Shown in pieces: positions 34,982 through 58,226 of a stretch of 64,000 nucleotides of DNA (position 1 is the first letter of the stretch; the number at the start of each line of letters is the position of its first letter). The notes beneath the pieces are model-generated. The model did not search any database. It saw nothing but the letters and a program-made list of their open reading frames with translations, and had not been told where the DNA came from. The stretch is from an uncultured delta proteobacterium (GTDB taxonomy: Bacteria; Desulfobacterota; Desulfobaccia; Desulfobaccales; 0-14-0-80-60-11): assembly GCA_963797235.1 (NCBI GenBank), contig CAWCOX010000009.1, forward strand, positions 205,158 through 269,157. Direction: 5' to 3'. The position numbers and the translations under genes are program-made.

Positions 34982-35492
34982 TCAGTCCTGCTCTAAAGGA
35001 AAGGTCAGCATGCCGCCGAAATAGCTGATCACCGTCACCAACGGGGTCACCGCCAGGACCAGCAGGAGATAAACGAAATTCAGGCCATGCAGGTCCTCGG
35101 AGCACCGTCGGATTGAGCAGCCGCCAGACAAAGGCGGCGGCGACCATGCTCCACAACAGAAACGACAGCCGCTTTTCCAGGGTCAGGGTGGGGTCGGGTC
35201 GAGGATAGTTCAACCTCTGGGTGAAGACGCCGGTGGCGATGGCCACCGGGGTGGTCAGCACGCCAGCCCCCAGGCAGTGAAAGGCCGTGGTCTCAAAGGA
35301 CCCCGCTCCGGTCAGCAGATAAAGCACGCTGAAAAAACTGGCGGCCAGCATGAAGACGATGGGAAAATGGGACAAGGCCGGATGGGGGTGGCGTTGCAGA
35401 TAGGGGTAGCGGGCCACCAATCCGGCCAACCAGCGGGGCAGTGGCCGGTCGCCGTCCGGTTCTGCCTGTCCCGGCAGGGGGCTGGTTGCCAT
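34982..35492 (-). pseudogene. DUF2231-type membrane protein, one frameshift (~35090)
   Basis: RHPHPALSHFPIVFM...TTAFHCLGAGV. After the shift the C-terminus reads DLHGLNFVYLLLVLAVTPLVTVISYFGGMLTFPLEQD*, parallel to the 31869 paralog. ATG 35492 overlaps the ubiA-like stop (TGATG). Confidence 0.65.
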
Positions 35493-36472
35493 CACCACCA
35501 CACCGGCAGCACCGCCCTGGCCCAAAGGTTCACCAGGATCACGGCCAGCACCGCCAGAGGATAACAGCTGGCCCGGTTGAACAGGGCCGCGGCGTGATCA
35601 TGGTTCCGGCAAAGCCGCCAGGCGGGCAGCAGCAACAGGTAAGCCCCCAACCCCAGGATCAGCAGCTGCTGGGAGAGGGGGAAGGGGATCGGGGCCAGGC
35701 GCAGGATGGCCAGGCTGAGGACGAGGCTGCCGGCCAAAGCAGCCAGGGCCAGGGCCCCGGCCCGCTTCAGGCCCAAGACCACCGGAATGGTCTTGGCGTT
35801 GAGGTGGCGGTCCGGTTCGACGTCGTGCCAGTCGGCCGGGATGTTTTGGCCGCCCACTTCCCAGAGAAAGAGCCAGAGAAAGAGAACCGCCAGGAAGACC
35901 GGCGAGGGCCCGGGGTCTACGGCAAAGACCGCGGCCGCGGCGCCCAGGCTCTTCACCACTCCGGCCACCAGCAGGCGCAGAGGGCTGACCTTGAGGAGCA
36001 GGCAATAGACGGCCTCCAGCCCGCAGCCCAACAGAAAGATCAGGGCGCAAACCGGGTTGAGGGTGTAGGCGCCCAGGAAGGCCACCAAGGCCCAGGCGCC
36101 GGTCCAGGCCAGGCCGGCGCGGCAGCTCATCCGGCCAGCGGCCAGGGGATGGCGCACGAAGACGGCGTCCAGGTAAGGGGCGGCCTGGGGGCCACCCGGC
36201 AGGCGGAGTTTTTCCCGGTCCACCCGGCAGTCGACCACGTCGTTCAGGGCGTAGACCGCGGTATAGCCGGCAAAGACGGTAAGGAGACCCAGGGCGATGA
36301 CTCCCGGCGGCGGGAAATGCCCCAGCCAGAGCAAGGCCGCCAGGGCCGGGGCGGCCAGGTCCAGCAGACCGTGGGGGGTGCGGGACAGGGCCAGGAAGAG
36401 CTTGAGCCGGGAGAGCCCCAGGTCCAGAGGCCTTGCGGCCATTTCAGCCTTTAATAAAGTTTGATCGCGCAT
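35492..36472 (-). CDS. UbiA-superfamily aromatic/polyprenyl prenyltransferase
   Basis: 326 aa, about 8-9 TM. Asp-rich motifs NDVVDCRVD and DWHDVEPD. Confidence 0.8.
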   Translation of the reverse strand: MRDQTLLKAEMAARPLDLGLSRLKLFLALSRTPHGLLDLAAPALAALLWLGHFPPPGVIALGLLTVFAGYTAVYALNDVVDCRVDREKLRLPGGPQAAPYLDAVFVRHPLAAGRMSCRAGLAWTGAWALVAFLGAYTLNPVCALIFLLGCGLEAVYCLLLKVSPLRLLVAGVVKSLGAAAAVFAVDPGPSPVFLAVLFLWLFLWEVGGQNIPADWHDVEPDRHLNAKTIPVVLGLKRAGALALAALAGSLVLSLAILRLAPIPFPLSQQLLILGLGAYLLLLPAWRLCRNHDHAAALFNRASCYPLAVLAVILVNLWARAVLPVWW

Positions 36473-36500
36473 GGCTCCGGCTCTTCGATCTGATTAGTTC

Positions 36501-36555
36501 CTACGCTGGCGAGGGCGCCGGCGCTACATTTGCCTATAAAAGCCTGCGGCTACCA
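36501..36555. repeat. Two juxtaposed repeat half-elements (GGCGAGGGCGCCGGCGCTACA and AAGCCTGCGGCTAC)
   Basis: 36508-36528 is the reverse complement of 23912-23932. 36538-36555 matches elements at 46251-46262 and 58266-58278. Confidence 0.75.
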
Positions 36556-36685
36556 AATCCTTCTAATGCTCACTTAAGATAAGGCTGGGGGCGGGGCTGT
36601 CAAGCGTCCCGGCGCCGCCTGATCGCGGCCGGCTCCCCTTGATACCTCCCTTGGGAGTGCTGATATATATGGCCAATAACTGCAG

Positions 36686-37588: not shown

Positions 37589-38014
37589 ATGCAGCCGGTA
37601 AGCCTCAACCCTTTGAGCCCCTGGGCTCCCGGTTTGCTCAGCCTCGTCCTGTATACCGGCGTCGTTCTGGGCCTGCTGGGGCTGCTGTTGGTCCTGACCC
37701 GCTGGCTGGGCGAACAGAAGCCCGACTTCGAAAAAGCCAGGCCCTACGAATGCGGGGTGATCCCCACCGGCGGGGCCCGGTTCCGTTATCCGGTGCCCTT
37801 CTACCTGGTGGCGGTCTTCTTTCTCATCTTCGACGTGGAGAGCGCCCTGATCTTTTCCTGGGCGGTGGCCATCGAGGCACTCAGCTGGCGCGGCTGGCTG
37901 CAAATCTCCTTTTTCATCATCGTCCTGCTCGTCAGTCTCGTTTACCTGTGGAAAAAAGGAGGGCTGGATTGGCGGCCCCAGTTACTACGAAAGGCGTCAC
38001 CACCCCGGAGTTGA
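37589..38014 (+). CDS. nuoA: NADH-quinone oxidoreductase subunit A
   Basis: 3 TM, the PYECG motif, and FDVESALIF. Confidence 0.9.
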
Positions 38015-40429
38015 TCCGCGGTCTGGAATACCTGAACCGGCCTCGTTTTGAGGGCGTCGGCCCCACGAGCCGGGGAATCGAGCGCGGCCTGGACCTGGTG
38101 GTCAACTGGTGCCGGGCCTACAGCTTCTGGCCGCTCTTCTTCGGGCTGTCCTGCTGTTTCATCGAAGAGATCACCGCCTGGACGCCGCGCTTCGACATCT
38201 CCCGATTCGGGGCCGAGGTCATCAGGGGCTCGCCCCGGCAGGCGGACCTGCTGATCGTTTCCGGCACGGTCTTCAAGAAGATCGCCCCGGTGGTGCTCAG
38301 GCTCTATGAGCAGATGACCGAACCGAAATGGGTCATCTCCATGGGCTCCTGCTCCAACTGCGGCGGCATGTACGACTGCTACAGCGTGGTTCAGGGCGTC
38401 GACCAGATCCTGCCGGTGGATATCTACATCCCCGGCTGCCCGCCCCGGCCCGAGGCGGTGATGCAGTCCATCGTGCTGCTCCAGGAGAAGGTCATGTCCG
38501 AGCGGCCGCTGCGCAAGATCCTGCACCGGCCCGGCGGCACTCAGGGCACCCAGACCCCCATCCTGGTGGACGGCCTGACCAAGACCCGGGACCCCCGCGG
38601 CCCCGGCTATTACGGCACCCCGCCCCGGGGCAGCGAAGAGACGCCGCCGATGTTTTGGGACGCCCGGTCCGACCTGATGTGGACCCCGCCGCCTAACTTC
38701 CTCGAATTGAGCGAGACGGACCGATCCCTGGCCCAGTCCCTGACGGCAAAATTCGGGGACGCGGTGGCCCAGGCGGAAAATACCTCGGACATGCTCACCT
38801 TTCAGGTGGCGCCGGCGCGGGTCGAAGAAGTGCTGCGCTTTTTAAAGACCGAGTCCGAGCCCAAATTCTCGCGCCTGGACGACCTGACCGCGGTGGATGA
38901 AACGGCCCGCCGGGAGCGGGAGCAGTACCCGGACTACACCCTGAACTACCAGCTCCTCTCCTTTGAGTCCGCCTCGCGGGTGCGCCTCAAGGTGCCGCTG
39001 CATGGGCCCGGAGCCGGCGATCCCCACCATCACCGGCATCTGGCCCTCGGCCGACTGGTACGAGCGGGAAGCCTTCGACATGTTCGGCATCCTTTTTACG
39101 GGGCATCCCCGGCTGTGGCGTCTCCTCATGCCGCACGACTGGGAGGGGCATCCGCTCAGAAAGAGCTACCCGGACCGGGCCACCGATATGCCGCCCTACA
39201 CCCATTACGACGCCCAGAAGCGCCAGCCGCGGGATGCCGGGGAGTACATGGCCGGGCGCCTGGCCGAAGACCAGTACGTTCTGAATATCGGCCCGCACCA
39301 CACCAGCACCCACGGCCTGATTCGGTTTATCCTGGCCCTCCGGGGCGAAGAGATCACGGCGATCGACACGGACATCGGCTACCACCACCGGGCAGCGGAG
39401 AAGATCGGCGAGCGCCAGTCCTGGCACCAGTACATCCCCTACACCGACCGGGTGGACTATCTCACCGGGGTGGCCAATAACCTCACTTACCTGCTGGCGG
39501 TGGAGCAGTTGGCCGGCATCCAGGTGCCGGACCGGGCCCAATTCATCCGGGTGATGCTCACCGAGTTTTTCAGGTTAAGCAACCACCTGGTCTGGTTTTC
39601 CACCTATACCCAGGACACCGGGGCCATGACCCCCACTTTCTACTGTTTTGCCGAGCGGGAAAAGATCCTGGACATCGTGGAGCTGATCACCGGGGGGCGG
39701 CTGCACCCCGCCTGGTTCCGCCTGGGCGGCGTGGCCATGGACCTGCCCGACGGCTGGAAGGAACTGGTGGACGATTTCGTCAAGGTCTTCCCCCGGCGCA
39801 TCAAGGAGTTCGAGGCCCTGATCACCAAGAACCCCATCTTCGAGGCCCGGACCCGGGAGGTGGGTTATCTCTCCCGGCAGGACGCCATGGAGTGGGGGGT
39901 CACCGGGGCCAACCTCAGGGCCAGCGGCCTGGAGTGGGACCTCAGGAAGAAGATGCCGTATTCGGGCTATGAGGCCTTCGACTTCGACATTCCCTACGCC
40001 ACGGGCGGCGATTGCTACGCCCGTTACCTGGTGCGGGTGGAGGAGATGCGCCAGAGCGTCCGCATCATCGAACAGGCGGCCAACCAGATGCCGCCGGGGC
40101 GCTGGCTCAGCGACGACTACCGTTACATCATTCCGCCCAAGGCAGAAACCCTGACGGACATCGAGACCCTGATTCACCATTTCATCAACGTCACCCGGGG
40201 GGCCAAGATTCCCCGGGGCGAGGCCTACGTGGCCACCGAGCACCCCCGGGGCGAGCAGGGAGTTTACGCGGCCAGCGACGGCCTGCACATGGCTTACCGG
40301 CTGCGTTTCCGGTCGCCCGGCTTTGCTCACGTCCAGGCCCTGCCCCTGATGGCGGTGGGGCACCTGATTTCGGATTTGATCGCCATCATCGGCTCCATTG
40401 ATTTCGTGTTGCCGGATATTGACCGGTAG
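37969..40429 (+). pseudogene. nuoBCD: Fused NADH-quinone oxidoreductase subunits B-C-D, one frameshift (~39005)
   Basis: NuoB: SCCFIEE...[11 protein letters not shown]...PGCPPRP. About 60 aa of Pro/Gly linker. NuoC: ..[17 protein letters not shown]. NuoD: [12 protein letters not shown]...[10 protein letters not shown]. There is no stop between the modules. TTG 37969 has AGGAGG 6 nt upstream; the alternative start is TTG 38011. Confidence 0.85.
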
Positions 40430-40447
40430 GGTTTGAGACACCAGATA

Positions 40448-40616
40448 GCTCACGCAAAGACGCAAAGGCGCCAAGGCGCAGGGTGCGCCCCGGATATTGA
40501 TCGGTGAACCAGATGAAATAAAAAACAAATCCCCCCTAACCCCCCTTTGATAAAGGGGGGGAGAAGAAACGGGAGTCAAAGTCCCCCTTTGGAAAAGGGG
40601 GATTTAGGGGGATTTT
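40448..40616. repeat. Repeat cluster in the nuoD-nuoE gap: an ACGCAAAG array plus an AAATCCCCCC/GGGGGGATTT double hairpin
   Basis: gctcacgcaaagacgcaaaggcgccaaggcgcagggtgcgcc, then aaatcccccctaacccccctttgataaaggggggg...ccccctttggaaaagggggatttagggggattt. Confidence 0.85.
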
Positions 40617-40640
40617 AGGATGCCCAACAGATAAAAACTT

Positions 40641-41135
40641 ATGATCCCAGCGGAATTACGAGAAAAATTGCAGGCCGAAATTGCCGGGGCGGAACACCCC
40701 CGGGAACAGGCGATCAACGTCATGTACGCGGTCCAGGGACACTATGGCTACCTGACCGACGAGGGTCTGGTGGAGGCGGCGGACCTCCTCGAGCTGACTC
40801 CGCTGGAGTTGGAGGAACTGGCCACCTTTTACGACTTCATCTACCGCCGGCCGGTGGGCAAATATGTCATCCACGTGTGCGACGGGGTGGTCTGCTGGAT
40901 GTTCCACGAAAACTGCGTGTTCGATTATCTCAGCCAGAAGCTGGGAGTCGGTGCGGGGGAGGTTTCGGCGGACGGCTGGTTCACGGTGCTGCCCACGGCC
41001 TGCATCGGCTACTGTGACCACGCCCCGGCCATGCTGATCAACGGCAAGATGTACGGCCCGCTCACGCCGGAGCTGATCGACGAGATTTTGGAGAAATTAA
41101 AGACCGAATACTGTGACCTGGTGGTCTGTAAGTGA
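40641..41135 (+). CDS. nuoE: NADH-quinone oxidoreductase subunit E (24 kDa, 2Fe-2S)
   Basis: VCDGVVC...ACIGYCDHAPAM Cys ligand pattern. Confidence 0.9.
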   Translation: MIPAELREKLQAEIAGAEHPREQAINVMYAVQGHYGYLTDEGLVEAADLLELTPLELEELATFYDFIYRRPVGKYVIHVCDGVVCWMFHENCVFDYLSQKLGVGAGEVSADGWFTVLPTACIGYCDHAPAMLINGKMYGPLTPELIDEILEKLKTEYCDLVVCK

Positions 41136-41148
41136 ACAGAATCGTTCA

Positions 41149-41225
41149 GACCGGGGACGGGAGACGGAGGACTGGGGCAAAACCTCGGTCCCCGGCGCAC
41201 CAGGATGGCGGGCGAGACGCCCGCC
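41149..41225. repeat. Repeat cluster in the nuoE-nuoF gap: a GGGAGACGG array hairpin plus a GGCGGGCG hairpin
   Basis: gaccggggacgggagacggaggac...cctcggtccccggc (sibling at 53011-53070), then ggcgggcg-aga-cgcccgcc. Confidence 0.8.
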
Positions 41226-41275
41226 CCATTGCACCGAGGCCGGCCCCACCAGTTATGGTTGAGCCGTAGCTCAGA

Positions 41276-42588
41276 ATGGACCCTATGACTGAAGAAGTCC
41301 TGTTCAAAAACCGCCGGCCCGACCGCCCTGCCACTATTGACGAGTATCGGCAGAGCGGCGGCTATGAGGCGTTGATCAAGGCCGTGAGAGAGCGGACGCC
41401 GGAGGAGGTGCGGCAACTGGTGCTGGACTCCGGTCTCCGGGGCCGGGGCGGCGCCGGCTTTCCCACCGGCCGCAAGTGGTCTTTCATCCCCGCGGATGCG
41501 GGCTTTCCGCGCTATGTGGTGCCCAACACCGACGAAATGGAGCCCGGCACCTTCAAGGACCGGGTGCTGGTGAACCTCGACCCCCACCTGGTCATTGAGG
41601 GTATCATTCTGAGCGGCTATGCGGTGGGGGCCGAGAAGGGCTATTTCTTTATCCGGCCTTCCTATGAACTGGACGCCCAGCTCATTGAAAGAGAAGTGGA
41701 AGTGGCCCGGCAGGCCGGCTTTTTGGGGAAGAATATTCTGGGGAGCGCTTTCTCTTTCGAGCTGATGGTGCACCGCAGTGCCGGGCGTTACATCTGCGGC
41801 GAGGCCACGGCCCAGGTCAACGCCCTCCAGGGTAATCGGGCTCACCCGATCAAGGACCGCCACATGGCCACCGACGGCCTCTGGCACCGGCCCACCATCG
41901 TCAACAACGCCGAGACCCTGGCCTGTGTGCCGGGCATTTTGCGACAAGGGGCGGAATGGTTCAAGGGCCTGGCCCGGACCAAGACCGGGGCCGGCACCAA
42001 GCTTTTCTGCGTCAGCGGCAAGGTCAACCGGCCCGGCTGCTTTGAGCTGCCCCTCGGCCTTCCCCTGAGGGAGATCATCGAAGAGTCGGCCGGGGGGCTG
42101 CTGCCGGGCTCGGAGCTGAAGGCGGTGATGCCGGGCGGGGCCTCCACGGCCTTCATGCCCGCCAAATACTACGACGTGGAGATGGACTTCGAACCCTTGA
42201 GGCAGTGGGGCACCGGCTGGGGACCGCGGCCATCATGGTCTTTGACCATAACACCTGTCTGGTGGCCGCCACCCTGAACCTGATCGAATATTTCGCCCGG
42301 GAATCCTGCGGCTACTGCACCCCCTGCCGGGAAGGGCTGCCGTATATCCGGGACCTGCTGTGGCGGATCGAGGCCGGGGAAGGCCGAGAGGAATTCATCC
42401 CCATGTTGCAGCAGATGGCCCGGCACATGGACAGCGCCTACTGCGGCTTCGCCCCCGGGGCGGCCGAGCCGGTCCTGGGCCTGCTGAAGTATTTTAGCGA
42501 CGAGATCCGGGAGCACATCAGCCAGAAGAAGTGTCCCTTTGGGGAGACCGACCGGCCGCACCGGAAGTTGTGGTACCCGGCGGAGTAA
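41276..42588 (+). pseudogene. nuoF: NADH-quinone oxidoreductase subunit F (51 kDa), one frameshift (~42205)
   Basis: GLRGRGGAGFPTGRKWSF (FMN/NADH site). After the shift: ESCGYCTPCREG (4Fe-4S). Confidence 0.9.
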
Positions 42589-42597
42589 AGCAAAAGA

Positions 42598-42720
42598 TGA
42601 ACCACCAAGACACCAAGAACACCAAGGTTCACCAAGAAGTTTTTCTGGGTCTGGCGCTGCCAGACCCAGAAAACCACCTTCTCTTAGTGTTTCTTGGTGC
42701 CCTTGGTGTCTTGGTGGTGA
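42598..42720. repeat. Composite palindromic CACCAAG-array element in the nuoF-nuoG gap
   Basis: Arms accaccaagacaccaagaacaccaaggttcaccaagaag / cttagtgtttcttggtgcccttggtgtcttggtggtg. Core ttctgggtctggc-gc-tgccagacccagaa. Confidence 0.85.
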
Positions 42721-42729
42721 GAATTTATT

Positions 42730-45226
42730 ATGCCTAAGCTCATCATCGATCAGCGGCCCATCGAGGTCCCGGCCGGGACCAAGGTCATTGCCGCGGCCGA
42801 GCAGCTGGGGATCATGATCCCGCGGTTCTGCTACCACCCCGGCCTGGGATCTTTCGGGGCCTGCCGCATGTGCGCCGTCAAGTTCCTGGAAGGGCCGGTC
42901 AAGGGCATCGAGATGAGCTGCATGGAAGACGCCCGGGACGGCATGGTGGTCTCGACCACCGACCCCGAGGCCATGGAGTTCCGCCGGTACGTCATCGAGT
43001 GGCTGATGATGCACCACCCCCTGGACTGCCCGGTGTGCGATGAAGGCGGGCACTGCCTGCTGCAGGACGAGACCGTCTCCGGCGGCCACGGCCATGCGGC
43101 GTTACCTGGGCCCCAAGCGCACCTACCAGGACCAGTATCTGGGGGCTTTCGTGCAGCACGAAATGAACCGCTGCATCCAGTGCTGGCGCTGCCGCAATTT
43201 TTACCAGGAATTCGCGGGCTACCGGGATTTCGGGGCCATGCAGATCGCCAACCGCATGTACTTCGGGCGCTACGAGGACGGGCCGCTGGCGAGCCCCTTT
43301 TCCGGCAACCTCATCGACCTGTGCCCCACCGGGGTGCTCACCGACAAACCGGCCCGCTTCGTCGGGCGGCGCTGGGATTTCGAGCGGGCCCCGTCGCTGT
43401 GTATCCATTGCTCCCTGGGCTGCAACACCACGGGCAGCGCCCGCTACCGCCAGATGTGGCGCCAGGAAGGGCGCTTCAATGAAATGGTGAACGGCTACTT
43501 CATTTGCGACCGGGGGCGTTACGGCTTTGCCTATGAGAGCCACCCGGAGCGGCCCCGCCGGGCCAGGATTGCCGGGGTGGAAGTGGCCTGGGCGGAGGCG
43601 ATCCAGGCGGCCGCAGCCAGGCTTAGCCACCTGGCGGCAACCTCCGGCCCCGGGGCCGTCGCCTGCCTGGGTTCGAGCCGCAGCAGCCTGGAGAGCCAGG
43701 CGATGCTGAAGCGGTTTTGCCGGACCTTGGGTTGGACCGAGCCCCGCTATTTCACCGTGCCCTCGCAAGAGCGCAAGGTCAGGGCCGCGGTCTCGCGGCT
43801 GGAGGCGGGCCTGGCCGTATCCCTGCGAGAGCTGGAAGCGGCGGATTTTATCCTGGTGGCCGGGGCCGACCCGGTGAACGAGGCCCCCATGCTGGCCCTG
43901 GCCCTGCGCCAGGCCTGGCGTAGGGGCGGGCAAGTGGTGGTGCTGGACCCGCGGCCGGTTGCGCTTGCCCTTCGACTTTGAGCATCTGCCGCTTTCTCCA
44001 GGGGACCTCAATCAGGGTCTGGGTGCCCTGGTCCGTGGGGCTCTGGCTGGCAGAAACTTGACGAATCTCACTCCAAAGACTCGTCAATTTGCCGCGACCC
44101 TGCCTGAAAAGCCTGATCTGGAACCTGCAATTCGTGATCGTCTGGCCGCCTTAAGGCAAAAGCTCGGCCAAAGCAAAAGGCCGGTCATCGTCTGTGGCAC
44201 CGATATTGTCAAGGAGTCCACGCCAGCCTTGGCCGCCGATTTGGCCCTGCTGCTGCGAGAACTCGAGATCAATGCCGGCCTCTTCTATGTCCTGCCCGGC
44301 GCCAATACCTTCGGGGCCAGTCTATTGTCAGCGGAGCATGAGCAGCCATGGATCGAGGCCCTGGAAGCCGGCGCCGTCAAGGCCCTGCTGGCGATAGAGT
44401 GCGACCCCTTCTGGGACTACCCGGACCGGGAGCGCCTGGCCCGGGCCTTGGACAAGCTGGAGTTGCTGGTGGTCCTGGACTACCTGCCTTCGCCACTGGT
44501 GCAGCGGGCGGATATCGTCTTGCCCACCCTCACCGTATTCGAGCGCACCGCTGCCAGCTTCGTCAACCAGGAGGGCCGGCTGCAACTGGCGCCGCCGGTG
44601 CACCTGGGTGGCAGCCCCCTGGCCCAGGTCAGCCCGGAGTTGCACCCGCCCCGGACCTTCCTGAGCCACGTCCCCGGCGGCGAGCCTCGGACGGCCGGGG
44701 AGATTTTAGCGGAGTTGGCCGCGGCCATGTCCCCGCCGGCGGCGTTGCCGGTCGCAGACCTCTGGGATTGGCTGGGCCGGGAGAGTGCCGTTTTCGCCAA
44801 TCTTGCCGCGCTGTTCTCGCCGCCGCCGGGAGCGCGACTTCTGCCCCGGCCGCTACGGCTGGGGCCTATGCCCCGGCCGCGGCGCCGGCCCCGGAGTCGC
44901 CCCCTCCGGACCACCTGGAGCTGCTGCTGGTGGACTCAACCTTCGGGACCGAAGAACTGGCCAGTTATGCCAAATATATCCAGCAGGTGGAAGAGCCGCC
45001 CCGGCTGTGCATGCAAACTGCCGACGCGGCTAAAAACGGCCTTGAAGCTGGGGACCTGGTGGCCTTGCGGCTCCCGGCGGGTGAACTGAGGGTGGCGCTC
45101 CAGGTGGCGGAAAATATGGCTCCCGGGGTCCTGGTGCTGCCCCGGCATCGGCAACTGAACTGGCGCCGGGCGCCGGATTATCAGGTTTCGCTCTCTTCGG
45201 GCGACCTCGTCAAGGTGGAAGAATAG
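42730..45226 (+). pseudogene. nuoG: NADH-quinone oxidoreductase subunit G (75 kDa), three frameshifts (~43090, ~43965, ~44850)
   Basis: CYHPGLGSFGACRMC (2Fe-2S), HPLDCPVCDEGGHC, NRCIQCWRCRNF, CPTGVL, then a molybdopterin-like domain. Four overlapping ORFs read as one protein. Confidence 0.85.
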
Positions 45227-47540: not shown

Positions 47541-47565
47541 TGGGTGGACAAAAGGCTTAAAAAGC

Positions 47566-48064: not shown

Positions 48065-48080
48065 GGGCGTTAGGGACTAA

Positions 48081-48101: not shown

Positions 48102-48113
48102 CTACGGGAAATT

Positions 48114-48425
48114 ATGAACACTATCGTTCCATATAGTCACGTGCTGGTTCTGGCCGGGGCCGTCTTTTTCCTGGGCGCGGCCTGCGCGGTGGCCCGGCGC
48201 AATCTGGTGATGATCCTCATCGGCGTCGAGGTGATGCTGAACGCCGCCGGGGTGGCCCTGGTGGCCGCCTCACTGCGCTGGCAGCAGTTGGACGGCCAGG
48301 CGCTGGTGATCTTCATCATGTGCGTGGCCGCGTCCGAAGTGGCCGTGGGCCTGGCCCTCATCGTCTATTCCCACCGGCGCACCGGCACCCTGGATGCCGA
48401 CCGCTATAATCTGATGAAGGGCTAA
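48114..48425 (+). CDS. nuoK: NADH-quinone oxidoreductase subunit K
   Basis: 103 aa, 3 TM. ..MLNAAGVALVAAS.., AASEVAVGLALIV. Confidence 0.9.
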   Translation: MNTIVPYSHVLVLAGAVFFLGAACAVARRNLVMILIGVEVMLNAAGVALVAASLRWQQLDGQALVIFIMCVAASEVAVGLALIVYSHRRTGTLDADRYNLMKG

Positions 48426-48466
48426 AGATTCATGGCGAAGGTCGGTTAGTCCCGAGGATTAAGATC

Positions 48467-48486
48467 GGGCGGCTCGAGAGCCGCCC
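48467..48486. repeat. GGGCGGCTC/GAGCCGCCC hairpin in the nuoK-nuoL gap
   Basis: gggcggctc-ga-gagccgccc, followed by ctac. Confidence 0.75.
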
Positions 48487-48499
48487 CTACAAAGGTAAA

Positions 48500-50475
48500 A
48501 TGGAAACCGTTCTCCTGCTCCTGCTGCTGTTGCCCCTGGGCGGCTTCGTGATCAACGCCGTGCTGGGCCGCTTTCTGCCCAGGCGGGCGGTGGAGGCGGT
48601 GGCCTGCGCCGCGGTCCTGGGGGCCATGTTCTGTGCCGCGGCGGCCCTGGTCCTGGCCGGCGACCGGGCCCACGACCTCACCTTCTGGCAGTGGTTCGGG
48701 GCCGGGGATTTTTCGACGGCCATGAACGTCCATTTCGATCCCCTGGCCGCGGTCATGGCGCTGATGGTCACCTTTGTGGCGAGCATCATCCACCTCTACT
48801 CCGCCGCCTTCATGCGGGAGGACGCCGACTACGTCCGGTTTTTCTGCTATTTGAACCTCTTCGTCTTCGCCATGCTGGTGATCACCACGGCGGACAGCCT
48901 GATCTTCGTCTACCTGGGCTGGGAGGGGGTGGGCTTCTGCTCTTATGCCCTGATCGGTTTCTGGTACCGGGACGAAGCCAACGCCAACGCCGGCCGCAAG
49001 GCCTTCATCTGCACCCGCATCGGCGACATCGCCTTCGGCGTGGCCCTGGGCCTGTGCTTCGTCCATTTCGGCAATTTTTCCATCACCCAGATCAATAGCC
49101 AGGCCGCGGGACTCAGTCCCACCCTGATCACCGTCCTGGCCCTGCTGTTGCTCTGGGCGGCGGTGGGTAAATCGGCGCAGCTACCCCTGACGGTGTGGCT
49201 GCCGGACGCCATGGCCGGCCCCACCCCGGTCTCGGCCCTGATCCACGCCGCCACCATGGTCACCGCCGGCACCTACCTGCTCATGCGGCTCTTTCCGTTG
49301 GTGTCGCTCTCGCCCACGGCCATGCTGATCATCGCCGGGGTGGGCGCCGTCACCGCGCTGTACGCCTCTTTCGCCGCCCTGGCCCAATGGGACCTCAAAA
49401 AGATGCTGGCCTACTCCACCATCAGCCAGGTGGGTTACATGTTCCTGGCGGTGGGGGCGGGCGACATCGTCGGCGGCCTCTTCCACCTGGTGTCCCACGC
49501 CTTCTTCAAGGCCCTGCTCTTTTTGACCGCGGGCATCGTCATCCAGGCCCTGGCCGAGGAACACAACATCTTCCGCATGGGCAACCTGCGCCGCCGCCTG
49601 CCCGCGGTTTATTGGCTGTTTCTGATCGGCGCCGTCTCCCTGAGCGCCTTTCCGCTGTTGGGGGGCTTCTTCAGCAAGGACCGCATCCTCTTGGCCACCT
49701 TTATCCATCCGGGAGCCACTTACAAAATCTTCTGGCTCCTCGGCCTGGCGGCGGCCTTTCTGACGCCGCTCTATACCTTCCGGGTCTTCTTCGTGGCCTT
49801 TCCGGAGCGGACCGACGGCGGGGGAGGCGAACCGATCCGGCCCATCCCCCGGTTCATGGCCTGGGTCCTCTGGCCCCTGGCGGTCTGCGCCCTGGGCGAC
49901 GGCCTGCTCAATCTGCCGGGGGGCATCGGCAAAGAACTTTTTGGGCAATTATCTGGCCGTCGTCCCCGGGGCCCGGCCGGACCTGGGGGCTCCCCCGGGG
50001 ACGGAATGGGCCATGGGAATTATCAGCGCCGTCATCGTGGTGGTCTCCATCGGCCTGGCCTACTGGCTTTACCGCCGCCGGCCGGCCCGGGAACCGGCGC
50101 TGGCAGGCTACTGGGGCCTCCTGTTTGCCGGCTTTTATCTCGACCGGCTCTATCAGTTGATCTTCGTCCGGCCTTATCAAGCGTATGGCCCGCTTTCTGT
50201 GGCGGCAGGTGGATGACCGTTACGATCAGCAAGTCATCGTCGGAGGCGCCCGGGCCCTCTTCCGGCCTTACCGGGCCCTGGCGAAATTCTGCTGGCTGCA
50301 GGTGGACGAACTGGTCATCGATGAGGGTGTGGTCAAGGCCGCCGACGGCCTGGTGTCTGTCTCCCGGGGCCTGGGGTATTGGACCACGGGGCGGCTGTCC
50401 ACCTATCTGAAGATGTTGCTCCTGGGCCTGACCATCTTTTTTGCCGCTCTGGGCCTGAGCTGGTACCTGTGGTAA
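48500..50475 (+). pseudogene. nuoL: NADH-quinone oxidoreductase subunit L, two frameshifts (~49935, ~50195)
   Basis: Antiporter-like core ..GKSAQLPLTVWLPDAMAGPTPVSALIHAATMVTAG... The C-terminal amphipathic helix and last TM are recovered from ORFs 49941-50216 and 50185-50475. Confidence 0.85.
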
Positions 50476-50485
50476 TAACGGAGGC

Positions 50486-52002
50486 ATGAATATGCTTCAA
50501 TTTCCCATACTTACCCTCATTATCTTCTGGCCGATCCTGGGCAGCTTTGTTGTCCTGGCGGTTTATCGGCGCCCGGACCTGGTCCGTTGGCTCAGTCTGC
50601 TGCGTCACCCTGGTGGAAATGGCCCTGGTGGCGGCGCTCTTTGGTCTCGACCTCCAGCCCCACGCCACGCCCCAGGGCACCTGGCTGCTGCTGGAGGACT
50701 ATGCCTGGATTCCATGGCTGGGGGCCCGCTACAGCCTGGGCCTGGACGGCATCAGCCTCCTGCTCCTGGCGCTGGTCGCCTTTCTGAATATCTTCTGCGT
50801 GCTCGTCTCCTGGCGGGCCATCGATTTTAAGCACGGCTCCTTCTATTTCTTCATCCTGTTCCTGGAGGGCACCCTGGCCGGCCTCTTTCTGGCCGCCGAT
50901 CTGCTGCTCTTTTACCTCTTTTGGGAGATCCAGATCATCCCCATGTTCTTCCTGGTGGGCATCTGGGGGCACGAGAACCGCATCCACGCGGCCATCAAGT
51001 TCCTGCTGTACACCCTGGCCGGCAGCCTGGTGATGCTCATCGCCCTGCTGATCCTCTACATCCTCCACGGGCAGGCGACCGGGGTTTACACCTTCTCGGT
51101 CTACCAGTTGACGCAGCATGGACCCCTGGGGCGCACCACCGAAGTCCTCTTGTTCGCCGCCTTTCTGCTGGCCTTCGGCATCAAGGTCCCGCTGCTGCCG
51201 GTGCATACCTGGCTGCCCGACACCCATACCGAGGCCCCCACCGCCGGCAGCGTGGTTCTGGCCGGGCTGCTCCTGAAGACCGGGGTTTACGCCATTTTCC
51301 GATTTGCCATCCCGTTCTTTCCCGAGGGCGCGCCAATACCTGGTGCCGCTCCTATTGATCCTGGGGATGGGCGGCCTGTTCTATGCCGGCTGGATCGCCC
51401 TGGCCCAGGCCGACATCAAGCGCCTGGTGGCCTACTCCAGCATCGCCCACATGGGCATGGTGATCATCGGCATCGTCATCTGGAACGCCGTGACCCTGAG
51501 CGGCGCCGTTTTACAGATGATCAACCATGGCCTGTCCACTTCGGCCCTGTTCATCATGGTGGGCATGCTGGACGAGCGCCTCCATTCCCGGAATTTCGCC
51601 GTAATGGGGGGCCTGTGGAGCAAAATGCCGGTATTCAGCGCCTTTTTCCTGCTGTTTGCCCTGTCGTCCCTGGGACTGCCGGGCCTCAATAATTTCGTGG
51701 GGGAGATGCTCATCCTGGTGGGCGCCTTCAAGGCCAACTGGTGGGTGGCGGTTTGGGGCTTTGTCGGCATCGTCTTCGGGGTGATCTACATCCTGCGGAT
51801 GGTGCAGGACTCCCTCTTCGGCGAACCCCGGGCCGAGCACGTCCTCTGGGACGTCAATTCCAGGGAGGTCGTCATCCTGGTGGTCCTGGCCGTGGCGGTG
51901 CTTTTCATCGGCCTGCACCCCGGGCCGGTGCTGCAATGGCTGGATCAGCCGGTGCAGATGATGCTGCACCAGACCACCCAGGTGGCCTGGCTGCCTAGAT
52001 AG
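50486..52002 (+). pseudogene. nuoM: NADH-quinone oxidoreductase subunit M, two frameshifts (~50590, ~51330)
   Basis: GGAGG SD. ..FGIKVPLLPVHTWLPDTHTEAPTAGSVVLAGLLLKTG.. and ..KRLVAYSSIAHMGMV.. lie in successive frames. Confidence 0.85.
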
Positions 52003-53110: not shown

Positions 53111-54547
53111 ATGTCCACTGATTGGCCGGGGCTGCTCCCGGTGGTTATCCTGGCCGGAGGCGGCTCGCTCATCTTCTGCGCCGGGGCCTTCTGGCGGCGT
53201 CTGCCCGAGGGGGTGCTCTTCGCCCTGGCCTTGCTCAGCGCCGGGGCCGCCGGGGCCGCGGCCCTCTGGATAACCCCGGCTAACCCCACCTCCGAAGGCA
53301 TGCTGGACCTGGGGGGCTACGCCCGGTTTTTCACCTGCCTGTTCATGCTGATCACCCTCCTGACCTGCCTGTTCCTGCGGCAGTATGCCCGGGCCCGGGG
53401 CTTGGCCGGCGATGAACTTTACGGCCTGGTCCTCTTTGCCGCCCTGGGGATGGTGCTGGTGGCCGGGGCCTTGAACTGGGTCATCTTTTTTTTGGGGTTC
53501 CAGCTCATCTCCCTGTCCCTGTATGTCCTGATCGCGGTGCGCAAGGGCGAGGCCGCCTCCAATGAGGCGGGGCTAAAATATTTCATCGTGAGCGCCGTGG
53601 CCTCGGGCTTCCTCACCTTCGGCATTGCTTTGCTCTACGCGGTGAGCGGCACCCTCCAGGTGGCCGGCTCCCTGGCGGCCCTGGCCCATCCCCAGGACCT
53701 GCCGGTGATCCTGCTGGCCCTGGCCCTGATCCTGGTGGGGATCGGCTTCAAGACCTCCCTGGTGCCCTTTCACCTCTGGACCCCGGATGTCTACCAGGGG
53801 GCCCCGGCCCCGGTGACCGCCTTTCTGTCCACCGGCTCCAAGGTGGCCCTGTTTGCCGCACTGCTGCGCTTTTCCCTGCTGGCGGCCGCACCGGTATGGG
53901 CTTATTGCCTGCCGGCCCTTTGGGTCCTGGCGGCCCTCACCCTGACGGTGGGCAACGTCACTGCGCTCTATCAAACGCAAATCAAACGCCTGCTGGCCTA
54001 CTCCTCCATCGGCCAGATGGGCTACCTCTTCATGACCCTGTTGGCCGTCAAACAGGGCGGCCTGCCGGCCCTGATGTTTTACCTGGTGGTCTATGCGGTC
54101 ATGGACCTGGGGGCCTTCGGGCTGATCGGCAGCTTGTCGCCGGGCCAGGCGCAGTCCGACCTGGACGATTTGGCCGACTACCAGGGGTTGGGTTACTCTC
54201 AGCCCTGGCGGGCGGGCCTCCTGGCCGTCTGCCTCATCTCCCTGGCGGGGCTGCCGCCCACGGCCGGCTTCATGGGAAAATTCGCCCTGTTCCGGGCGGT
54301 GCTGCACTCCGGCTACCTGATCCTGGCGGTCATCGGCATCCTGACCGCCATCATCTCCCTTTACTATTATTTTAAGGTGACGGTCTCGCTCTACATGCAG
54401 CCGGCCGGGCCCGAGGCGGCGGTGCCCAGGGGCGATCTGGCGGTGGGCCTGGCCGGCGCGGTGATCCTGGGGCTGATTCTCTGGCTGGGCCTGGCGCCGT
54501 CGGTCCTGTTCGACCTGGTCGATCGGCTCGCCTCGGCCCTGCCATGA
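53111..54547 (+). CDS. nuoN: NADH-quinone oxidoreductase subunit N
   Basis: 478 aa, about 14 TM. ..GFKTSLVPFHLWTPDVYQGAPAPVTAFLSTGSK.., KRLLAYSSIGQMGY. Confidence 0.9.
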   Translation: MSTDWPGLLPVVILAGGGSLIFCAGAFWRRLPEGVLFALALLSAGAAGAAALWITPANPTSEGMLDLGGYARFFTCLFMLITLLTCLFLRQYARARGLAGDELYGLVLFAALGMVLVAGALNWVIFFLGFQLISLSLYVLIAVRKGEAASNEAGLKYFIVSAVASGFLTFGIALLYAVSGTLQVAGSLAALAHPQDLPVILLALALILVGIGFKTSLVPFHLWTPDVYQGAPAPVTAFLSTGSKVALFAALLRFSLLAAAPVWAYCLPALWVLAALTLTVGNVTALYQTQIKRLLAYSSIGQMGYLFMTLLAVKQGGLPALMFYLVVYAVMDLGAFGLIGSLSPGQAQSDLDDLADYQGLGYSQPWRAGLLAVCLISLAGLPPTAGFMGKFALFRAVLHSGYLILAVIGILTAIISLYYYFKVTVSLYMQPAGPEAAVPRGDLAVGLAGAVILGLILWLGLAPSVLFDLVDRLASALP

Positions 54548-54921: not shown

Positions 54922-56112
54922 ATGAAGAGCGCCGCGAGCACGACCATCCAACAGGATTTCCAGGTAAGCTTCCGCTACCCGGTCCACTTCACCTCGGGTC
55001 TGTTCGATCCGGGGAATCCCCTGTTGCAGGAGGTCATCCGGGACGGCGGCGGCGACCTGCCCAAAAAGGTGCTGGCCGTGGTGGATCGCGGCCTTTACCG
55101 GCACCATCCCGGCTTGCTGGCGGACCTCGAAGAGTATTGCCGGGAACATGCCGAAGTCATCGTCCTGGCCGGTGCGCCTTTGCTTTTGCCCGGGGGCGAG
55201 GCGGTGAAGAACGAGCCGCTGCACGTCACCATCCTGCACCAGGCCATCCAGGCGGCGGGTTTGTGCCGCCATTCCTACGTGGCGGCCGTGGGCGGCGGCG
55301 CCCTCATCGACACGGTGGGCTTCGCCACGGCCACCGCCCACCGGGGGGTGCGGCTCCTCCGGGTGCCCACCACGGTGCTATCCCAGGCCGACGCCGCCAT
55401 CGGCGTGAAAAACAGCGTCAACGCCATGGGGCAGAAAAACTTCTTGGGGGTCTTCGCTCCGCCGGCCGCGGTGCTCAATGATAGCGATTTTTTAACCACC
55501 CTGTCCCAGAAAGACTGGATCGGCGGGGTGGCCGAAGCCGTCAAAGTAGCCCTCATTAAGGATGCGGATTTCTTTATCTTCCTGGAGAGCCGGGCCGAGG
55601 CCCTGGTGCAGCGGGATTTGCCGGCCATGCGAGAGGTCATTGAGCGCTGCGCCGCCTTGCACCTGGAGCACATCGCCACCTCCGGCGATCCCTTTGAGCA
55701 AGGCAGCTCCCGGCCTCTGGACTTCGGCCATTGGGCCGCCCACCGGCTGGAGCTGCTCAGCGGCTTCGAGCTGGGGCACGGGGAGGCGGTGGCCGTGGGC
55801 ATCGCCCTGGACACCACTTACTCCTATCTGGCCGGTCTATTGCCCAAGGTTGCCTGGCATCGGGTTTTGGAACTGCTGACCAACCTCGGTTTTACCCTGT
55901 ATGTTCCCCAACTCGACCAGCGCGGGGCTATCCTTCAGGGTCTGGAAGATTTCCGGGCCCACCTGGGGGGACGCCTCACCGTCATGCTCCTCTGGGATAT
56001 CGGGCAGGGCATGGAGGCCCACGAAATAGACCAGCAGACGGTCAGGGCCGCCCTGGACTTGCTGCGCCGGATCACTGTTGAAGATAGTGAGCATTTAGCA
56101 GTGAGCAGTTAG
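54922..56112 (+). CDS. 3-dehydroquinate-synthase-family sugar-phosphate cyclase (EboD-like, not canonical AroB)
   Basis: GGGALIDTVGFATATAHRGVRLLRVPTTVLSQADAAIGVKNSVN..GQKNFLGVFAPP. This is the DHQS fold, but AAIGVKNSVN replaces the AroB-type SSVGGKTGIN. The C-terminal tail is encoded by a repeat. Confidence 0.65.
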   Translation: MKSAASTTIQQDFQVSFRYPVHFTSGLFDPGNPLLQEVIRDGGGDLPKKVLAVVDRGLYRHHPGLLADLEEYCREHAEVIVLAGAPLLLPGGEAVKNEPLHVTILHQAIQAAGLCRHSYVAAVGGGALIDTVGFATATAHRGVRLLRVPTTVLSQADAAIGVKNSVNAMGQKNFLGVFAPPAAVLNDSDFLTTLSQKDWIGGVAEAVKVALIKDADFFIFLESRAEALVQRDLPAMREVIERCAALHLEHIATSGDPFEQGSSRPLDFGHWAAHRLELLSGFELGHGEAVAVGIALDTTYSYLAGLLPKVAWHRVLELLTNLGFTLYVPQLDQRGAILQGLEDFRAHLGGRLTVMLLWDIGQGMEAHEIDQQTVRAALDLLRRITVEDSEHLAVSS

Positions 56113-56256: not shown

Positions 56257-57510
56257 TTGCAAATCGGCCATGACGGTTTCTTCCACCTGACTTATTGTAC
56301 CAAGGTGCATCCCGGCCGCGGCTGGGGGGAGTTATTGCAGAATCTCCAGGCCCTGGTGCCGCGGCTCAAGGCCCGGCTGGCCCCGGAGCGACCCTTCGGT
56401 TTGGGCCTGCGCCTCTCCAATGCGGAAAGCCGGGAACTGTTGACCGGGGATCATCTGGCCAGGTTTCGAGACTTCCTGGCCCAACATGATCTCTACGTCT
56501 TCACCCTGAACGGCTTCCCGTACGGCGACCTGACGGGGCAGCCGGTGAAGGAGGCCATCTTCGCCCCGGACTGGCGGGCCGCCCGGCGCCTCGACTATAC
56601 CCTGCGCCTGGTGGACATCCTGGCCTGCCTGCTGCCGGCCGGCATTGATGGCGGTATCTCCACCGTGCCTCTGTCTTACCAGCCTTGGATCGGGGCGGAG
56701 GCCGAGGCCCTGGCGCAGATCACGGCCAACCTGGTGGACCTGACGGCCAGACTGATCCAGGTGGAGGCAGACACCGGCAAGCTCATCCACCTGGACCTGG
56801 AGCCGGAGCCCGATGGCCTGCTGGAGTGCAGCCGGGAGGTGGTGGAGTTTTTCCAAACCCGACTGCTGGAACGGGGCGCCCCGCAACTGGCCCGGGCCGC
56901 GGGGCTGAGTGAGGCTGAGGCTCGCCGCGGCTTGCTGCGGCATTTGCGGGTCTGCCTGGACACCTGCCACCTGGCGGTGGCCTATGAGGACCCGGCCGCG
57001 GCCCTGGAAGCCTTGACCCGAAACGGCATCCAGGTGGGCAAGGTGCAGATCACCGCGGGACTGAAGGTCACGGTGCCGGCCAACGGGCGGCGGGCTGCCC
57101 TGGCCCGGCAACTGGAGCCCTTTACCCACTCGCCCTATCTGCACCAGGTCATCGCCCGGGAAGACGGCGGCCGCGGCCGACGTTTCCCGGATCTCTGGCA
57201 GGCCCTGGCCCTGCTGGACCGCTGCCCCCCGGGCCAGTGGCGCATCCATTACCATATGCCGCTGTTTGTGGAGCGCTGCGGGGCCCTGGCCACCACCGGG
57301 GCGGAGACCCGTGAGGTGTTGCGGCTGCTTAGGGAACAGCGGTTTTGTCCCCACCTGGAGATCGAGACCTACACCTGGGAGTGGCTGCCGGCGGAGTTGA
57401 AGAAAGAGCTGCTGGATTCTCTTACCGAGGAATACCGCTGGGTGCTGGAGGCCATGGGGGAGGAGAGCGGTCAGCCGTCAGCGGTCAGCCAGGGCAAAGC
57501 CTCTCAATGA
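56257..57510 (+). CDS. Xylose-isomerase-like TIM-barrel protein (EboE-like)
   Basis: 417 aa. The N-terminus ..FHLTYCTKVHPGRGWGELL...FGLGLRLSNAESREL resembles the EboE family as I recall it. TTG start with AAGAGGA upstream. Confidence 0.55.
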   Translation: MQIGHDGFFHLTYCTKVHPGRGWGELLQNLQALVPRLKARLAPERPFGLGLRLSNAESRELLTGDHLARFRDFLAQHDLYVFTLNGFPYGDLTGQPVKEAIFAPDWRAARRLDYTLRLVDILACLLPAGIDGGISTVPLSYQPWIGAEAEALAQITANLVDLTARLIQVEADTGKLIHLDLEPEPDGLLECSREVVEFFQTRLLERGAPQLARAAGLSEAEARRGLLRHLRVCLDTCHLAVAYEDPAAALEALTRNGIQVGKVQITAGLKVTVPANGRRAALARQLEPFTHSPYLHQVIAREDGGRGRRFPDLWQALALLDRCPPGQWRIHYHMPLFVERCGALATTGAETREVLRLLREQRFCPHLEIETYTWEWLPAELKKELLDSLTEEYRWVLEAMGEESGQPSAVSQGKASQ

Positions 57511-57528
57511 AAACCCACATCCAGGACT

Positions 57529-57584
57529 ATGGAGAGCAGGCGCCCTCGCTTGCAAAAAAACAGCCGAGGGCGGCTGTTCTCCAT
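57529..57584. repeat. 55-bp TIR/hairpin element, copy C
   Basis: atggagagcaggcgccctcgcttgcaaaaaaacagccgagggcggctgttctccat. Confidence 0.9.
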
Positions 57585-57623
57585 TTTTGCTTGACGTTTC
57601 CCCACGCTGGTGTGAGGCCGGAT

Positions 57624-58226
57624 CTACAGCGGAAAATCCCGCAAAACCTGAAAAAGTTCTTCCTCCCGGCCGCCGAAGAAGTGGTCGGCGCCGGCGATGA
57701 CCCTGATCTCCGGCGCGGCCGCTCCTGCCAACAGCTGCCTCAACTCGGCTAAGGGGCAAAGGTCGTCCTGGTCGCCCGCCACCACCAGGCGCAGGCCGGG
57801 CACCCCGGGCAGCCAGGAGAGATCCATGAAGGCGATGGGCGGGGCGATGAAGACCGCGGCCCGGACCGCCAACCCCTGGAGCAAGGCCCGACCGGCCACG
57901 AAGGCCCCAAAGGAGTAACCCGCCAGGTAGAGGGGGCCGGGAGTCCGTTCCCCCAGGAAGTCCAGGGCCGCGGCCACGTCCGCGGCTTCGGCCTCACCCT
58001 CGCCATAGGCCCCGGTGCTGCGGCCCACGCCCCGGAAATTGAAGCACAGGGTGGCAAAGCCGCGGTGGTGAAAGGCTCGCTCGGCGGTCCAGACCACGTT
58101 GTTGTTCATGCTGCCGCCGAATCGGGGGTGAGGGTGGGTGATGACCACCCCGGGCCCGATGGTGCCCGGCAGAAAGCGGCCTTCCAGGGTGACGTCCGGG
58201 CCGGGGATGGAAACCGTGTCGGTCAT
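57624..58226 (-). CDS. Small alpha/beta-fold hydrolase
   Basis: 200 aa. Nucleophile elbow GYSFG, ..HPHPRFGGSMNN.., C-terminal ..GADHFF. Confidence 0.7.
   Translation of the reverse strand: MTDTVSIPGPDVTLEGRFLPGTIGPGVVITHPHPRFGGSMNNNVVWTAERAFHHRGFATLCFNFRGVGRSTGAYGEGEAEAADVAAALDFLGERTPGPLYLAGYSFGAFVAGRALLQGLAVRAAVFIAPPIAFMDLSWLPGVPGLRLVVAGDQDDLCPLAELRQLLAGAAAPEIRVIAGADHFFGGREEELFQVLRDFPL

Follow-up and report, generated by a model that had tools for sequence, protein, structure and literature searches.

The canonical ebo cluster (eboABCDEF) is found in Bacteroidota, Cyanobacteria, Pseudomonas, and eustigmatophyte plastids, in scytonemin or free-standing clusters. Its logic is to join a cyclitol-derived ring to a prenyl chain by means of a UbiA-superfamily enzyme. 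EboE has been predicted in the literature to be a dehydratase or isomerase with a xylose-isomerase-like fold. In a 2026 preprint (10.64898/2026.05.21.724671), the canonical ebo genes are linked to thallusin, and a cyclitol-derived trihydroxy aromatic ring is proposed to be prenylated by EboC on the way to this compound. In this study, a 64,000-nucleotide stretch of DNA (the window) from an uncultured delta proteobacterium of the Desulfobaccales (GCA_963797235.1, contig CAWCOX010000009.1, positions 205,158 to 269,157) was analysed, in which eboD- and eboE-type genes follow a complex I (nuo) operon. An earlier reading of the same letters, the original prediction, had described a dispersed ebo-like gene set around this operon and had called the ebo product chemically uncharacterised, which is out of date.

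The set that recurs consists of a UbiA subfamily, EboD, EboE, and one or two S-adenosylmethionine (SAM) methyltransferases. It is found in two classes of the Thermodesulfobacteriota, always in or next to operons of complex I, cytochrome bd, a cyo-like haem-copper oxidase, and sometimes a quinol-dependent nitric oxide reductase (qNOR). The window contains a version of the set that is split around the complex I operon. The gene set suggests an undescribed way to a quinone-like membrane lipid. We give even chances to the reading that EboD and EboE make a ring from mannose-6-phosphate, which would then be prenylated and methylated to yield a quinone-like respiratory lipid. The original prediction had likewise connected a prenylated, quinone-like metabolite with the respiratory chain, and that proposal is strengthened by the gene families and linkages found here. 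No prior description of EboD/EboE with respiratory operons or quinones, or for the Desulfobaccales with complex I, was found in the literature searched.

Compared with the canonical ebo cluster, the set has true EboD and EboE orthologues in common. However, eboA, eboB (TatD), eboC, and eboF (alkaline-phosphatase family) are not in the locus, the UbiA enzyme is of another subfamily, SAM methyltransferases are added (including a UbiE/MenG enzyme in the Desulfobulbales), and the setting is respiratory operons. With the isoprenoid benzoquinone clusters (ubi, plq, and mpq) the set shares the UbiA-family prenyltransferase, the UbiE-type C-methyltransferase (in the Desulfobulbales), the second methyltransferase, and co-location with quinone-using respiratory enzymes; near some loci there is also a UbiB/ABC1 kinase. 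In the known clusters the ring comes from chorismate or 4-hydroxybenzoate, and UbiD/UbiX and ring hydroxylases are needed; none of these genes were seen here, and the ring would instead come from a sugar phosphate via EboD/EboE. By the NCBIfam scores, the prenyltransferase is also no orthologue of UbiA, PlqA, or MpqA. The polyketide quinones of Mycobacterium and Streptomyces, which are encoded by type III polyketide synthase clusters, reportedly have a non-shikimate respiratory quinone ring and supplement menaquinone. Their ring is made by the polyketide synthase and carries an alkyl chain, whereas the present set has no polyketide synthase and would use a prenyl chain.

The EboD-EboE pair and the UbiA subfamily

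Profile hidden Markov model searches recovered all seven genes of the original prediction, at or very near its coordinates and in the families that it had named; qNOR is also present. The cyclase of the dehydroquinate synthase family (54922..56112, + strand) scored 563.8 bits on PRK06203 (cut-off 333). The AroB model TIGR01357 gave 207.9 bits, under its cut-off of 305. On PRK06203, a similar score (572.5 bits) was obtained for the canonical EboD of L018, a Rhodothermaceae genome that has a complete eboABCDEF cluster. This ties the model to EboD. On these scores, the cyclase is EboD-type and distinct from AroB, in agreement with the earlier claim. The TIM-barrel protein (56257..57510, + strand) scored 440.1 bits on NF035939 (cut-off 250) and is 48% identical to canonical EboE; EboD and EboE are 48-56% identical to proteins from eboABCDEF clusters. 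The protein that had been called EboE-like is thus, by its family score, a true EboE. A phmmer search against the PDB returned nothing for EboE.

The remaining ebo genes were searched for as well. No tblastn match to eboA, eboB, or eboF (L018 queries) was obtained in the 64-kb window or the Desulfobaccales loci, and eboA, eboB, eboC, and eboF are absent from the window and from 10 kb around eboDE in the relatives. The PAP2 phosphatase and the alpha/beta hydrolase belong to families other than EboA/B/F. Instead of a dispersed ebo cluster, the window has eboD and eboE with a different prenyltransferase.

This UbiA-superfamily prenyltransferase (35492..36472, - strand) matched PF01040 with 86.8 bits. 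Both Asp-rich motifs (NDVVDCRVD and DWHDVEPD) are present, and they are invariant in the subfamily alignment (A1). The top curated matches were archaeal-type prenyltransferase models, all far under their cut-offs, with PRK12884 as the best in NCBIfam (68 bits; cut-off 269). Lower scores were obtained on ubiA_other (57; cut-off 181), ubiA_proteo (28.9; cut-off 275), and MqnP_Cj_Hp (23.1; cut-off 375). No NCBIfam cut-off for MenA, UbiA, heme O synthase, MqnP, PlqA, or MpqA was reached. Neither a MenA-type or heme O synthase identity for this enzyme nor an AroB identity for the cyclase, which together would have spoken against the earlier proposal, was thus found. A HMMER search of 1.84 billion cluster representatives gave 71 relatives at E<=1e-30 and 317 at E<=0.001, and phmmer found no relative in the PDB. 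As judged by these searches, the enzyme is a member of a small, separate subfamily of the UbiA superfamily.

Several other assignments were considered and rejected. The EboC-like identity of the original prediction was not borne out: there was no NF035940 match at E<=0.001 (canonical EboC of L018, 375.5 bits), tblastn gave no significant similarity, and BLASTP against EboC gave E > 0.01. A UbiA-PAP2 pair resembling DPPR synthase and its phosphatase was dropped, as no such family matched and most relatives have no PAP2. A UbiA-DUF2231 fusion protein (P0091) was not used as evidence, since its contig is full of split genes and the fusion is probably an indel artefact.

In neighbour-joining trees, the EboD/E of the Desulfobaccales lie beside the canonical ebo-cluster proteins, and those of the Desulfobulbales form a separate, deeper branch. 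The EboD/E of the two classes are therefore not sister groups, with the canonical proteins branching in between. Given this split, a single recent inheritance does not account for the partnership with the UbiA subfamily.

Linkage of the gene set to respiratory operons

A genome scan with EboE as query placed the window in the Desulfobaccales. In this order, the arrangement of the window recurs in about 20 related loci (given here as L numbers), and it is therefore not due to chance. The order nuoH-methyltransferase-nuoI...nuoM-[slot]-nuoN-eboD-eboE is kept in about 15 loci, in which EboE is 63-91% identical; the nuoN-eboD junction is kept in 15 loci. The methyltransferase occupies the same nuo position in L004-L007, L011, L012, L014, L025, L029, L031, L034, L035, and L121. 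On the upstream side, UbiA and nuoA are divergent in all relatives examined (L029, L031, L033-L036, and L121), and the UbiA-DUF2231 pair is kept in L029, L031, L035, L036, and L121. The whole upstream block, UbiA-DUF2231-[qNOR]-cytochrome b5/DUF2231 with a pentose-phosphate operon, is also kept across the relatives examined. In L035, the complete set lies on one contig, with DUF2231-UbiA diverging from nuoA...methyltransferase...WrbA...nuoN-eboD-eboE. The downstream flank of eboE shows at least four unrelated contexts among the sub-clades. The synteny comparison that the original prediction had called for thus gave recurrent linkage to nuo in related genomes, not scattered genes.

A metagenome scan with the alignment of the UbiA subfamily as query yielded 80 loci. 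The short contig L058 has nuoN-UbiA-eboD on one strand, and its UbiA belongs to the Desulfobulbales (Desulfopila, Desulforhopalus, and Desulfobulbaceae). The order in L118 is nuoF...nuoN-UbiA-eboD-eboE-MT233-MT200-cydA-cydB, where 4-nt overlaps link eboD, eboE, and the two methyltransferase genes. EboD (547 bits) and EboE (409 bits) of this locus are both above the cut-offs. MT233 scored 232.9 on TIGR01934 (cut-off 158), 224 on NF001244 (cut-off 216), and 187 bits on the MpqE model, and on these scores it is a genuine UbiE/MenG methyltransferase; MT200 shows a weak resemblance to O-methyltransferases. The segment eboD-eboE-MT233-MT200-cydAB is kept in L119 and L120, with UbiA a few kb off, and L119 also carries a cyo-like oxidase and a UbiB kinase. 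In L112 and L117, UbiA lies beside nuoA and/or the cyo-like oxidase and cydAB. The nuo operons of the Desulfobulbales have no methyltransferase between nuoH and nuoI. The original prediction had linked the genes to two quinone-dependent enzymes. This holds for complex I, but qNOR is variable, and in the Desulfobulbia the linkage extends to cytochrome bd and the cyo-like oxidase.

A fusion oxidoreductase with DAO/FAD and Rieske parts is encoded directly upstream of eboD in L120 (18376-19884; Desulfobulbaceae). A homologue with 38% identity lies near UbiA and DUF2231 in L048 (~5873). This protein may be an extra pathway enzyme.

In more distant UbiA lineages, a cytochrome b5-DUF2231 gene comes after UbiA, and a methyltransferase of about 200 aa and a full-length UbiE-family methyltransferase accompany it; UbiB is present in L047. 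Such gene content is the signature of isoprenoid-quinone clusters. The cytochrome b5-DUF2231 homologue follows UbiA in 32 of the 80 loci scanned. Stand-alone DUF2231 and the cytochrome b5-DUF2231 fusion were observed with the UbiA subfamily in many unrelated metagenome contigs (L037-L110). The sole mention of DUF2231 found in the literature was in a cysteine database, and the family has no known function.

The complex I operon and other features of the window

The NuoBCD fusion has already been described for the phylum in complex I surveys. The first part of the operon in the window, which is of the NUO12 type, contains nuoA, fused nuoBCD, nuoE, nuoF, nuoG, and nuoH (37589..46218, + strand; from the translations), with nuoH at 45226-46218. 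The genes nuoI, nuoJ, nuoK, nuoL, and nuoM follow at 46929..52002 (+ strand; from translations and tblastn synteny), with nuoI at 46929-47501, and nuoN lies at 53111..54547 (+ strand; from the translation, 65-95% identical among relatives). Like the NUO12-type complex I operons of deltaproteobacterial lineages, the operon encodes B, C, and D fused in one subunit and a complete NuoEFG module. Intact NuoBCD proteins of 798-819 aa with Oxidored_q6, Complex1_30kDa, and Complex1_49kDa are found in L029, L034, L035, and L036. NuoBCD of the window is colinear with this single polypeptide but frameshifted, and NuoA and NuoE to NuoN are also there, as in NUO12. Compared with NUO12 complex I, the window adds a methyltransferase gene within the operon, an oxidoreductase slot of varying content between nuoM and nuoN, and eboD-eboE at the end; the complex I surveys searched make no mention of these three features.

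Frameshifts split nuoBCD, nuoF, nuoG, nuoL, nuoM, qNOR, and the transaldolase gene (sites at 38960-39050, ~42200, 43000-45200, ~49900, ~51300, ~33900, and 28000-29130). In the close relative L036 the split genes are intact, with a NuoBCD of 819 aa, a NuoF of 437 aa, and a NuoG of 833 aa. Because the same genes are intact there, the frameshifts in the window are probably assembly indels, which are likelier than pseudogenes. The contigs L031 and L033, from long-read metagenome-assembled genomes, show fragmentation like that of the window.

The gene between nuoH and nuoI (46296..46889, + strand) encodes a small class I SAM methyltransferase of 197 aa (PF08241, 69 bits). The UbiE-family Pfam model PF01209 gave a partial match of 57 bits, and no NCBIfam cut-off was reached (TIGR01934 45.6; cut-off 158). 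The protein is 31% identical to the UbiE-type MT233 of the Desulfobulbales. The phmmer search against the PDB returned generic methyltransferases only, of which the best relative is 3dh0, an uncharacterised SAM methyltransferase.

Other genes of the neighbourhood vary among lineages. The aldo-keto reductase (AKR; 52007-53044, + strand; PF00248, 227 bits) sits in the nuoM-nuoN slot. This slot holds an AKR alone in the window and three other loci, a Zn-dependent alcohol dehydrogenase (ADH) plus an AKR in two loci, and a WrbA NAD(P)H:quinone oxidoreductase in more distant members (228 bits on PRK03767 for L035); it is empty in two. As a side observation, the junction (52002-53111 in the window; L010-L012, L014, L025, L034, L035, L002, and L020) appears as a hot spot for NAD(P)H-dependent oxidoreductases. 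The PAP2 phosphatase (36709-37353, + strand; PF01569, 42.5 bits), upstream of nuoA, is found in L033 and L036 only and is absent from L029, L031, L034, L035, and L121. Its start had been placed at 36686, which is in frame with neither candidate open reading frame (ORF). The small alpha/beta hydrolase (57624..58226, - strand; PF12697, PF12146, and PF00561), convergent with eboE, is found in L009-L012, L014, L025, and L026, and is absent from L002-L006, L008, and L020. The qNOR gene (32667..34972, - strand; from the translations, with the frameshift near 33900) has an intact counterpart in L031, a NorB/COX1 protein of 764 aa, and L029, L033, and L036 have no qNOR at this site. The PAP2 phosphatase, the AKR, the hydrolase, and qNOR are lineage-variable passengers outside the core set. 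Of the tailoring enzymes proposed earlier, the methyltransferase is conserved, but the PAP2 phosphatase and the AKR are not.

These neighbours also bear on an alternative in which the genes serve as accessory factors of the respiratory complexes. The methyltransferase would modify a complex I subunit (a presumed parallel to the mitochondrial NDUFAF5 and NDUFAF7), UbiA with DUF2231 and cytochrome b5-DUF2231 would form a membrane redox or cofactor-prenylation module, and a cyclitol made by EboD/EboE would have a protective or regulatory role during oxidative or nitrosative stress. Such roles are consistent with a generic class I methyltransferase that belongs to no curated family, has 3dh0 as its best solved relative, and occupies the nuoH-nuoI position throughout the clade. 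Pairs of UbiA and cytochrome b5-DUF2231 are common in loci that have no eboDE, detoxifying reductases (WrbA, AKR, and ADH) gather in the nuoM-nuoN slot, and qNOR is an occasional neighbour. However, the Desulfobulbales have a UbiE-family quinone methyltransferase in the eboDE operon and none between nuoH and nuoI, and UbiA-superfamily enzymes act on small molecules and not on proteins. We consider these accessory roles improbable.

UbiA and PAP2 lie upstream of nuoA as originally predicted, but UbiA is transcribed away from nuoA, as the first gene of its own minus-strand operon. The order of this operon is UbiA, DUF2231, qNOR, cytochrome b5-DUF2231, and then the pentose-phosphate genes. The DUF2231 membrane protein (34975..35525, - strand; PF09990, 40.7 bits) is encoded directly downstream of UbiA, and its mechanical ORF extends to 34773. 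The cytochrome b5-DUF2231 fusion is also a membrane protein (31869..32624, - strand), and its homologues carry PF00173 and PF09990. A complete oxidative pentose-phosphate operon (26367-31723, - strand) was observed, with genes for transketolase, RpiB, transaldolase, 6-phosphogluconate dehydrogenase, glucose-6-phosphate dehydrogenase, and lactonase, and a HAD hydrolase in relatives. It is kept in L029, L031, and L121, directly downstream of the UbiA-DUF2231 genes.

The nuoN-eboD spacer of the window has no terminator-like site, and a terminator-like hairpin with a T-run follows eboE (57559-57578); eboD-eboE is probably on the same transcript as nuo. This spacer is 375 bp long in the window and about 100-340 bp (mostly 160-185 bp) in relatives, a difference that is due to species-specific repeats. 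A GC-rich hairpin, GGCGGGCGrGACGCCCGCC, occurs three times in the window: in the nuoN-eboD spacer (54639-54657), between PAP2 and nuoA (37353-37371), and inside the operon between nuoE and nuoF (41207-41225). A 57-nt imperfect palindrome (ATGGAGAACAGCCGCCCTCG...CGAGGGCGCCTGCTCTCCAT) also occurs three times, bracketing eboD and eboE (54842-54898, 56122-56178, and 57527-57587), with a weaker half-site in the UbiA-PAP2 spacer (36510-36531). Seven half-site matches were observed, against 0.01 expected. A role as a conserved operator was rejected, since L001, the closest relative, has a single copy and the others have none. Because of this distribution, the palindrome looks like a young element of the repetitive extragenic palindrome (REP) or miniature inverted-repeat transposable element (MITE) type. 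Two further repeats were noted: a 24-nt palindromic pair after the methyltransferase (46886-46909) and after nuoK (48467-48490), and an inverted repeat with 37-nt arms of ACCAAG-like units between nuoF and nuoG (42601-42718). No riboswitch or RNA element was found by Rfam within the region of interest.

Some features lie further away. A c-di-GMP-I-GGC riboswitch (RF03167; 2183-2265, - strand; 71.6 bits, gathering score 59) adjoins an exosortase and exopolysaccharide export locus (EpsH exosortase, Wzz/GNVR, and Poly_export). The GC content is 51-55% in positions 1-12000 and about 63% in the remainder of the window. At the other end, a large alpha-2-macroglobulin-like protein (59484-63936, + strand) is split by a frameshift into two ORFs that overlap. 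It is preceded by a 230-aa protein without a family match (58708-59400), and among the relatives compared this pair is shared with L009 only.

A candidate sugar-phosphate route to a benzoquinol

In the proposed route, EboD would act on mannose-6-phosphate, an activity shown for its family in the literature, and with EboE the ring would be made. EboE, a xylose-isomerase-like TIM barrel, may dehydrate and aromatise the EboD product to a polyhydroxybenzene, for example 1,2,4-trihydroxybenzene. The UbiA enzyme would attach a polyprenyl chain to this ring, and the methyltransferases would carry out O- and C-methylation. The product would carry electrons in the membrane as a benzoquinol-type compound, or it would be a closely related redox lipid. 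Such a route would need neither the shikimate pathway, nor oxygen-dependent hydroxylases, nor a UbiD/UbiX decarboxylase. The presence of a cyclase, a TIM barrel, a prenyltransferase, an O-methyltransferase-like enzyme, and UbiE, with no decarboxylase or hydroxylase, fits a short path from a sugar phosphate to a benzoquinol. The loss of two waters from a deoxy-inosose gives 1,2,4-trihydroxybenzene, and the benzoquinol substrate of UbiE is 2-methoxy-6-polyprenyl-1,4-benzoquinol. On this chemistry, a demethoxyubiquinone-like product is plausible.

A more specific version can be stated, at present tentatively. The Desulfobaccia and Desulfobulbia might possess a shikimate- and oxygen-independent respiratory benzoquinone, in which an EboD/EboE-derived trihydroxybenzene is prenylated by UbiA and converted by the O-methyltransferase and UbiE into a demethoxyubiquinone-like carrier. 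It would be used by nominal anaerobes that have complex I, cytochrome bd, cyo-like oxidases, and qNOR.

Several points weigh against a quinone-like product. The assignment of function draws on gene neighbourhood and enzyme-family chemistry. The methyltransferase of the window shares only 23-31% identity with the two Desulfobulbales enzymes and stays below every curated UbiE cut-off, and the window has no second methyltransferase, UbiB, cyd, or cyo genes. Most of the distant loci of the UbiA subfamily have no eboDE within 10 kb. Within the Desulfobaccales, L034 has UbiA, nuo, the methyltransferase, and WrbA, but no eboDE after nuoN; eboDE occurs without nuo in L013; and a lone eboE lies amid housekeeping genes in L015 and L016. 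The conservation in this order could be due in part to vertical inheritance. According to a 2026 survey (PMC13386864), the Desulfobacterota mainly make menaquinone, by the futalosine pathway, with ubiquinone in one class only; UbiE could therefore serve menaquinone.

The main rival explanation is that separate functions share a neighbourhood. The eboDE genes would be a scattered or remnant canonical ebo system, with eboB, eboC, and eboF elsewhere, that yields the usual ebo product or a soluble cyclitol. UbiA, UbiE, and the second methyltransferase would perform late steps of menaquinone or another known quinone, and the nuo and cyd order would reflect vertical inheritance and operon hitch-hiking. 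The loci L013, L015, L016, and L034 and the predominance of menaquinone, described above, also speak for this explanation. Moreover, a scattered arrangement of ebo genes is known from some phyla (e.g. Planctomycetota), the core genes have been reported in Desulfobacterota, the EboD/E of the Desulfobaccales cluster with canonical ebo-cluster proteins, and MT233 passes models shared by MenG and UbiE. However, the overlaps of eboD, eboE, UbiE, and MT200 in L118, and their co-orientation with cydAB in three Desulfobulbales loci, speak against unrelated functions. UbiA lies directly between nuoN and eboD in two loci (L058 and L118), and the same partnership is found, with another gene order, in two classes. 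The UbiA enzyme is far under the MqnP-, MenA-, and UbiA-type cut-offs. A UbiD/UbiX-type decarboxylase, as used after prenylation in the futalosine route, was not seen near the L118, L119, and L120 loci, and menaquinone synthesis has no role for a second non-radical-SAM methyltransferase. Separate functions are thus possible, but we find them rather unlikely.

If the quinone-like lipid reading fails, a conserved non-nuo insertion in the complex I operon would still be undescribed in widespread soil and sediment bacteria. If the more specific benzoquinone version is true, the set would represent a fourth independent ring origin for isoprenoid quinones. Five genes, with no chorismate-derived ring, decarboxylase, or hydroxylase, would be a new and simple solution. 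Work from 2025-2026 on methyl-plastoquinone and Desulfobacterota ubiquinone addresses two active questions: where high-potential quinones came from, and how the oxidases of anaerobes that encounter oxygen or nitric oxide are equipped. Cultured members exist in at least one carrier lineage (Desulfopila and Desulforhopalus). The widespread EboD/EboE pair would gain a primary-metabolic role. It would be a transferable unit for making rings that serves more than one pathway, which bears on the debated function of ebo.

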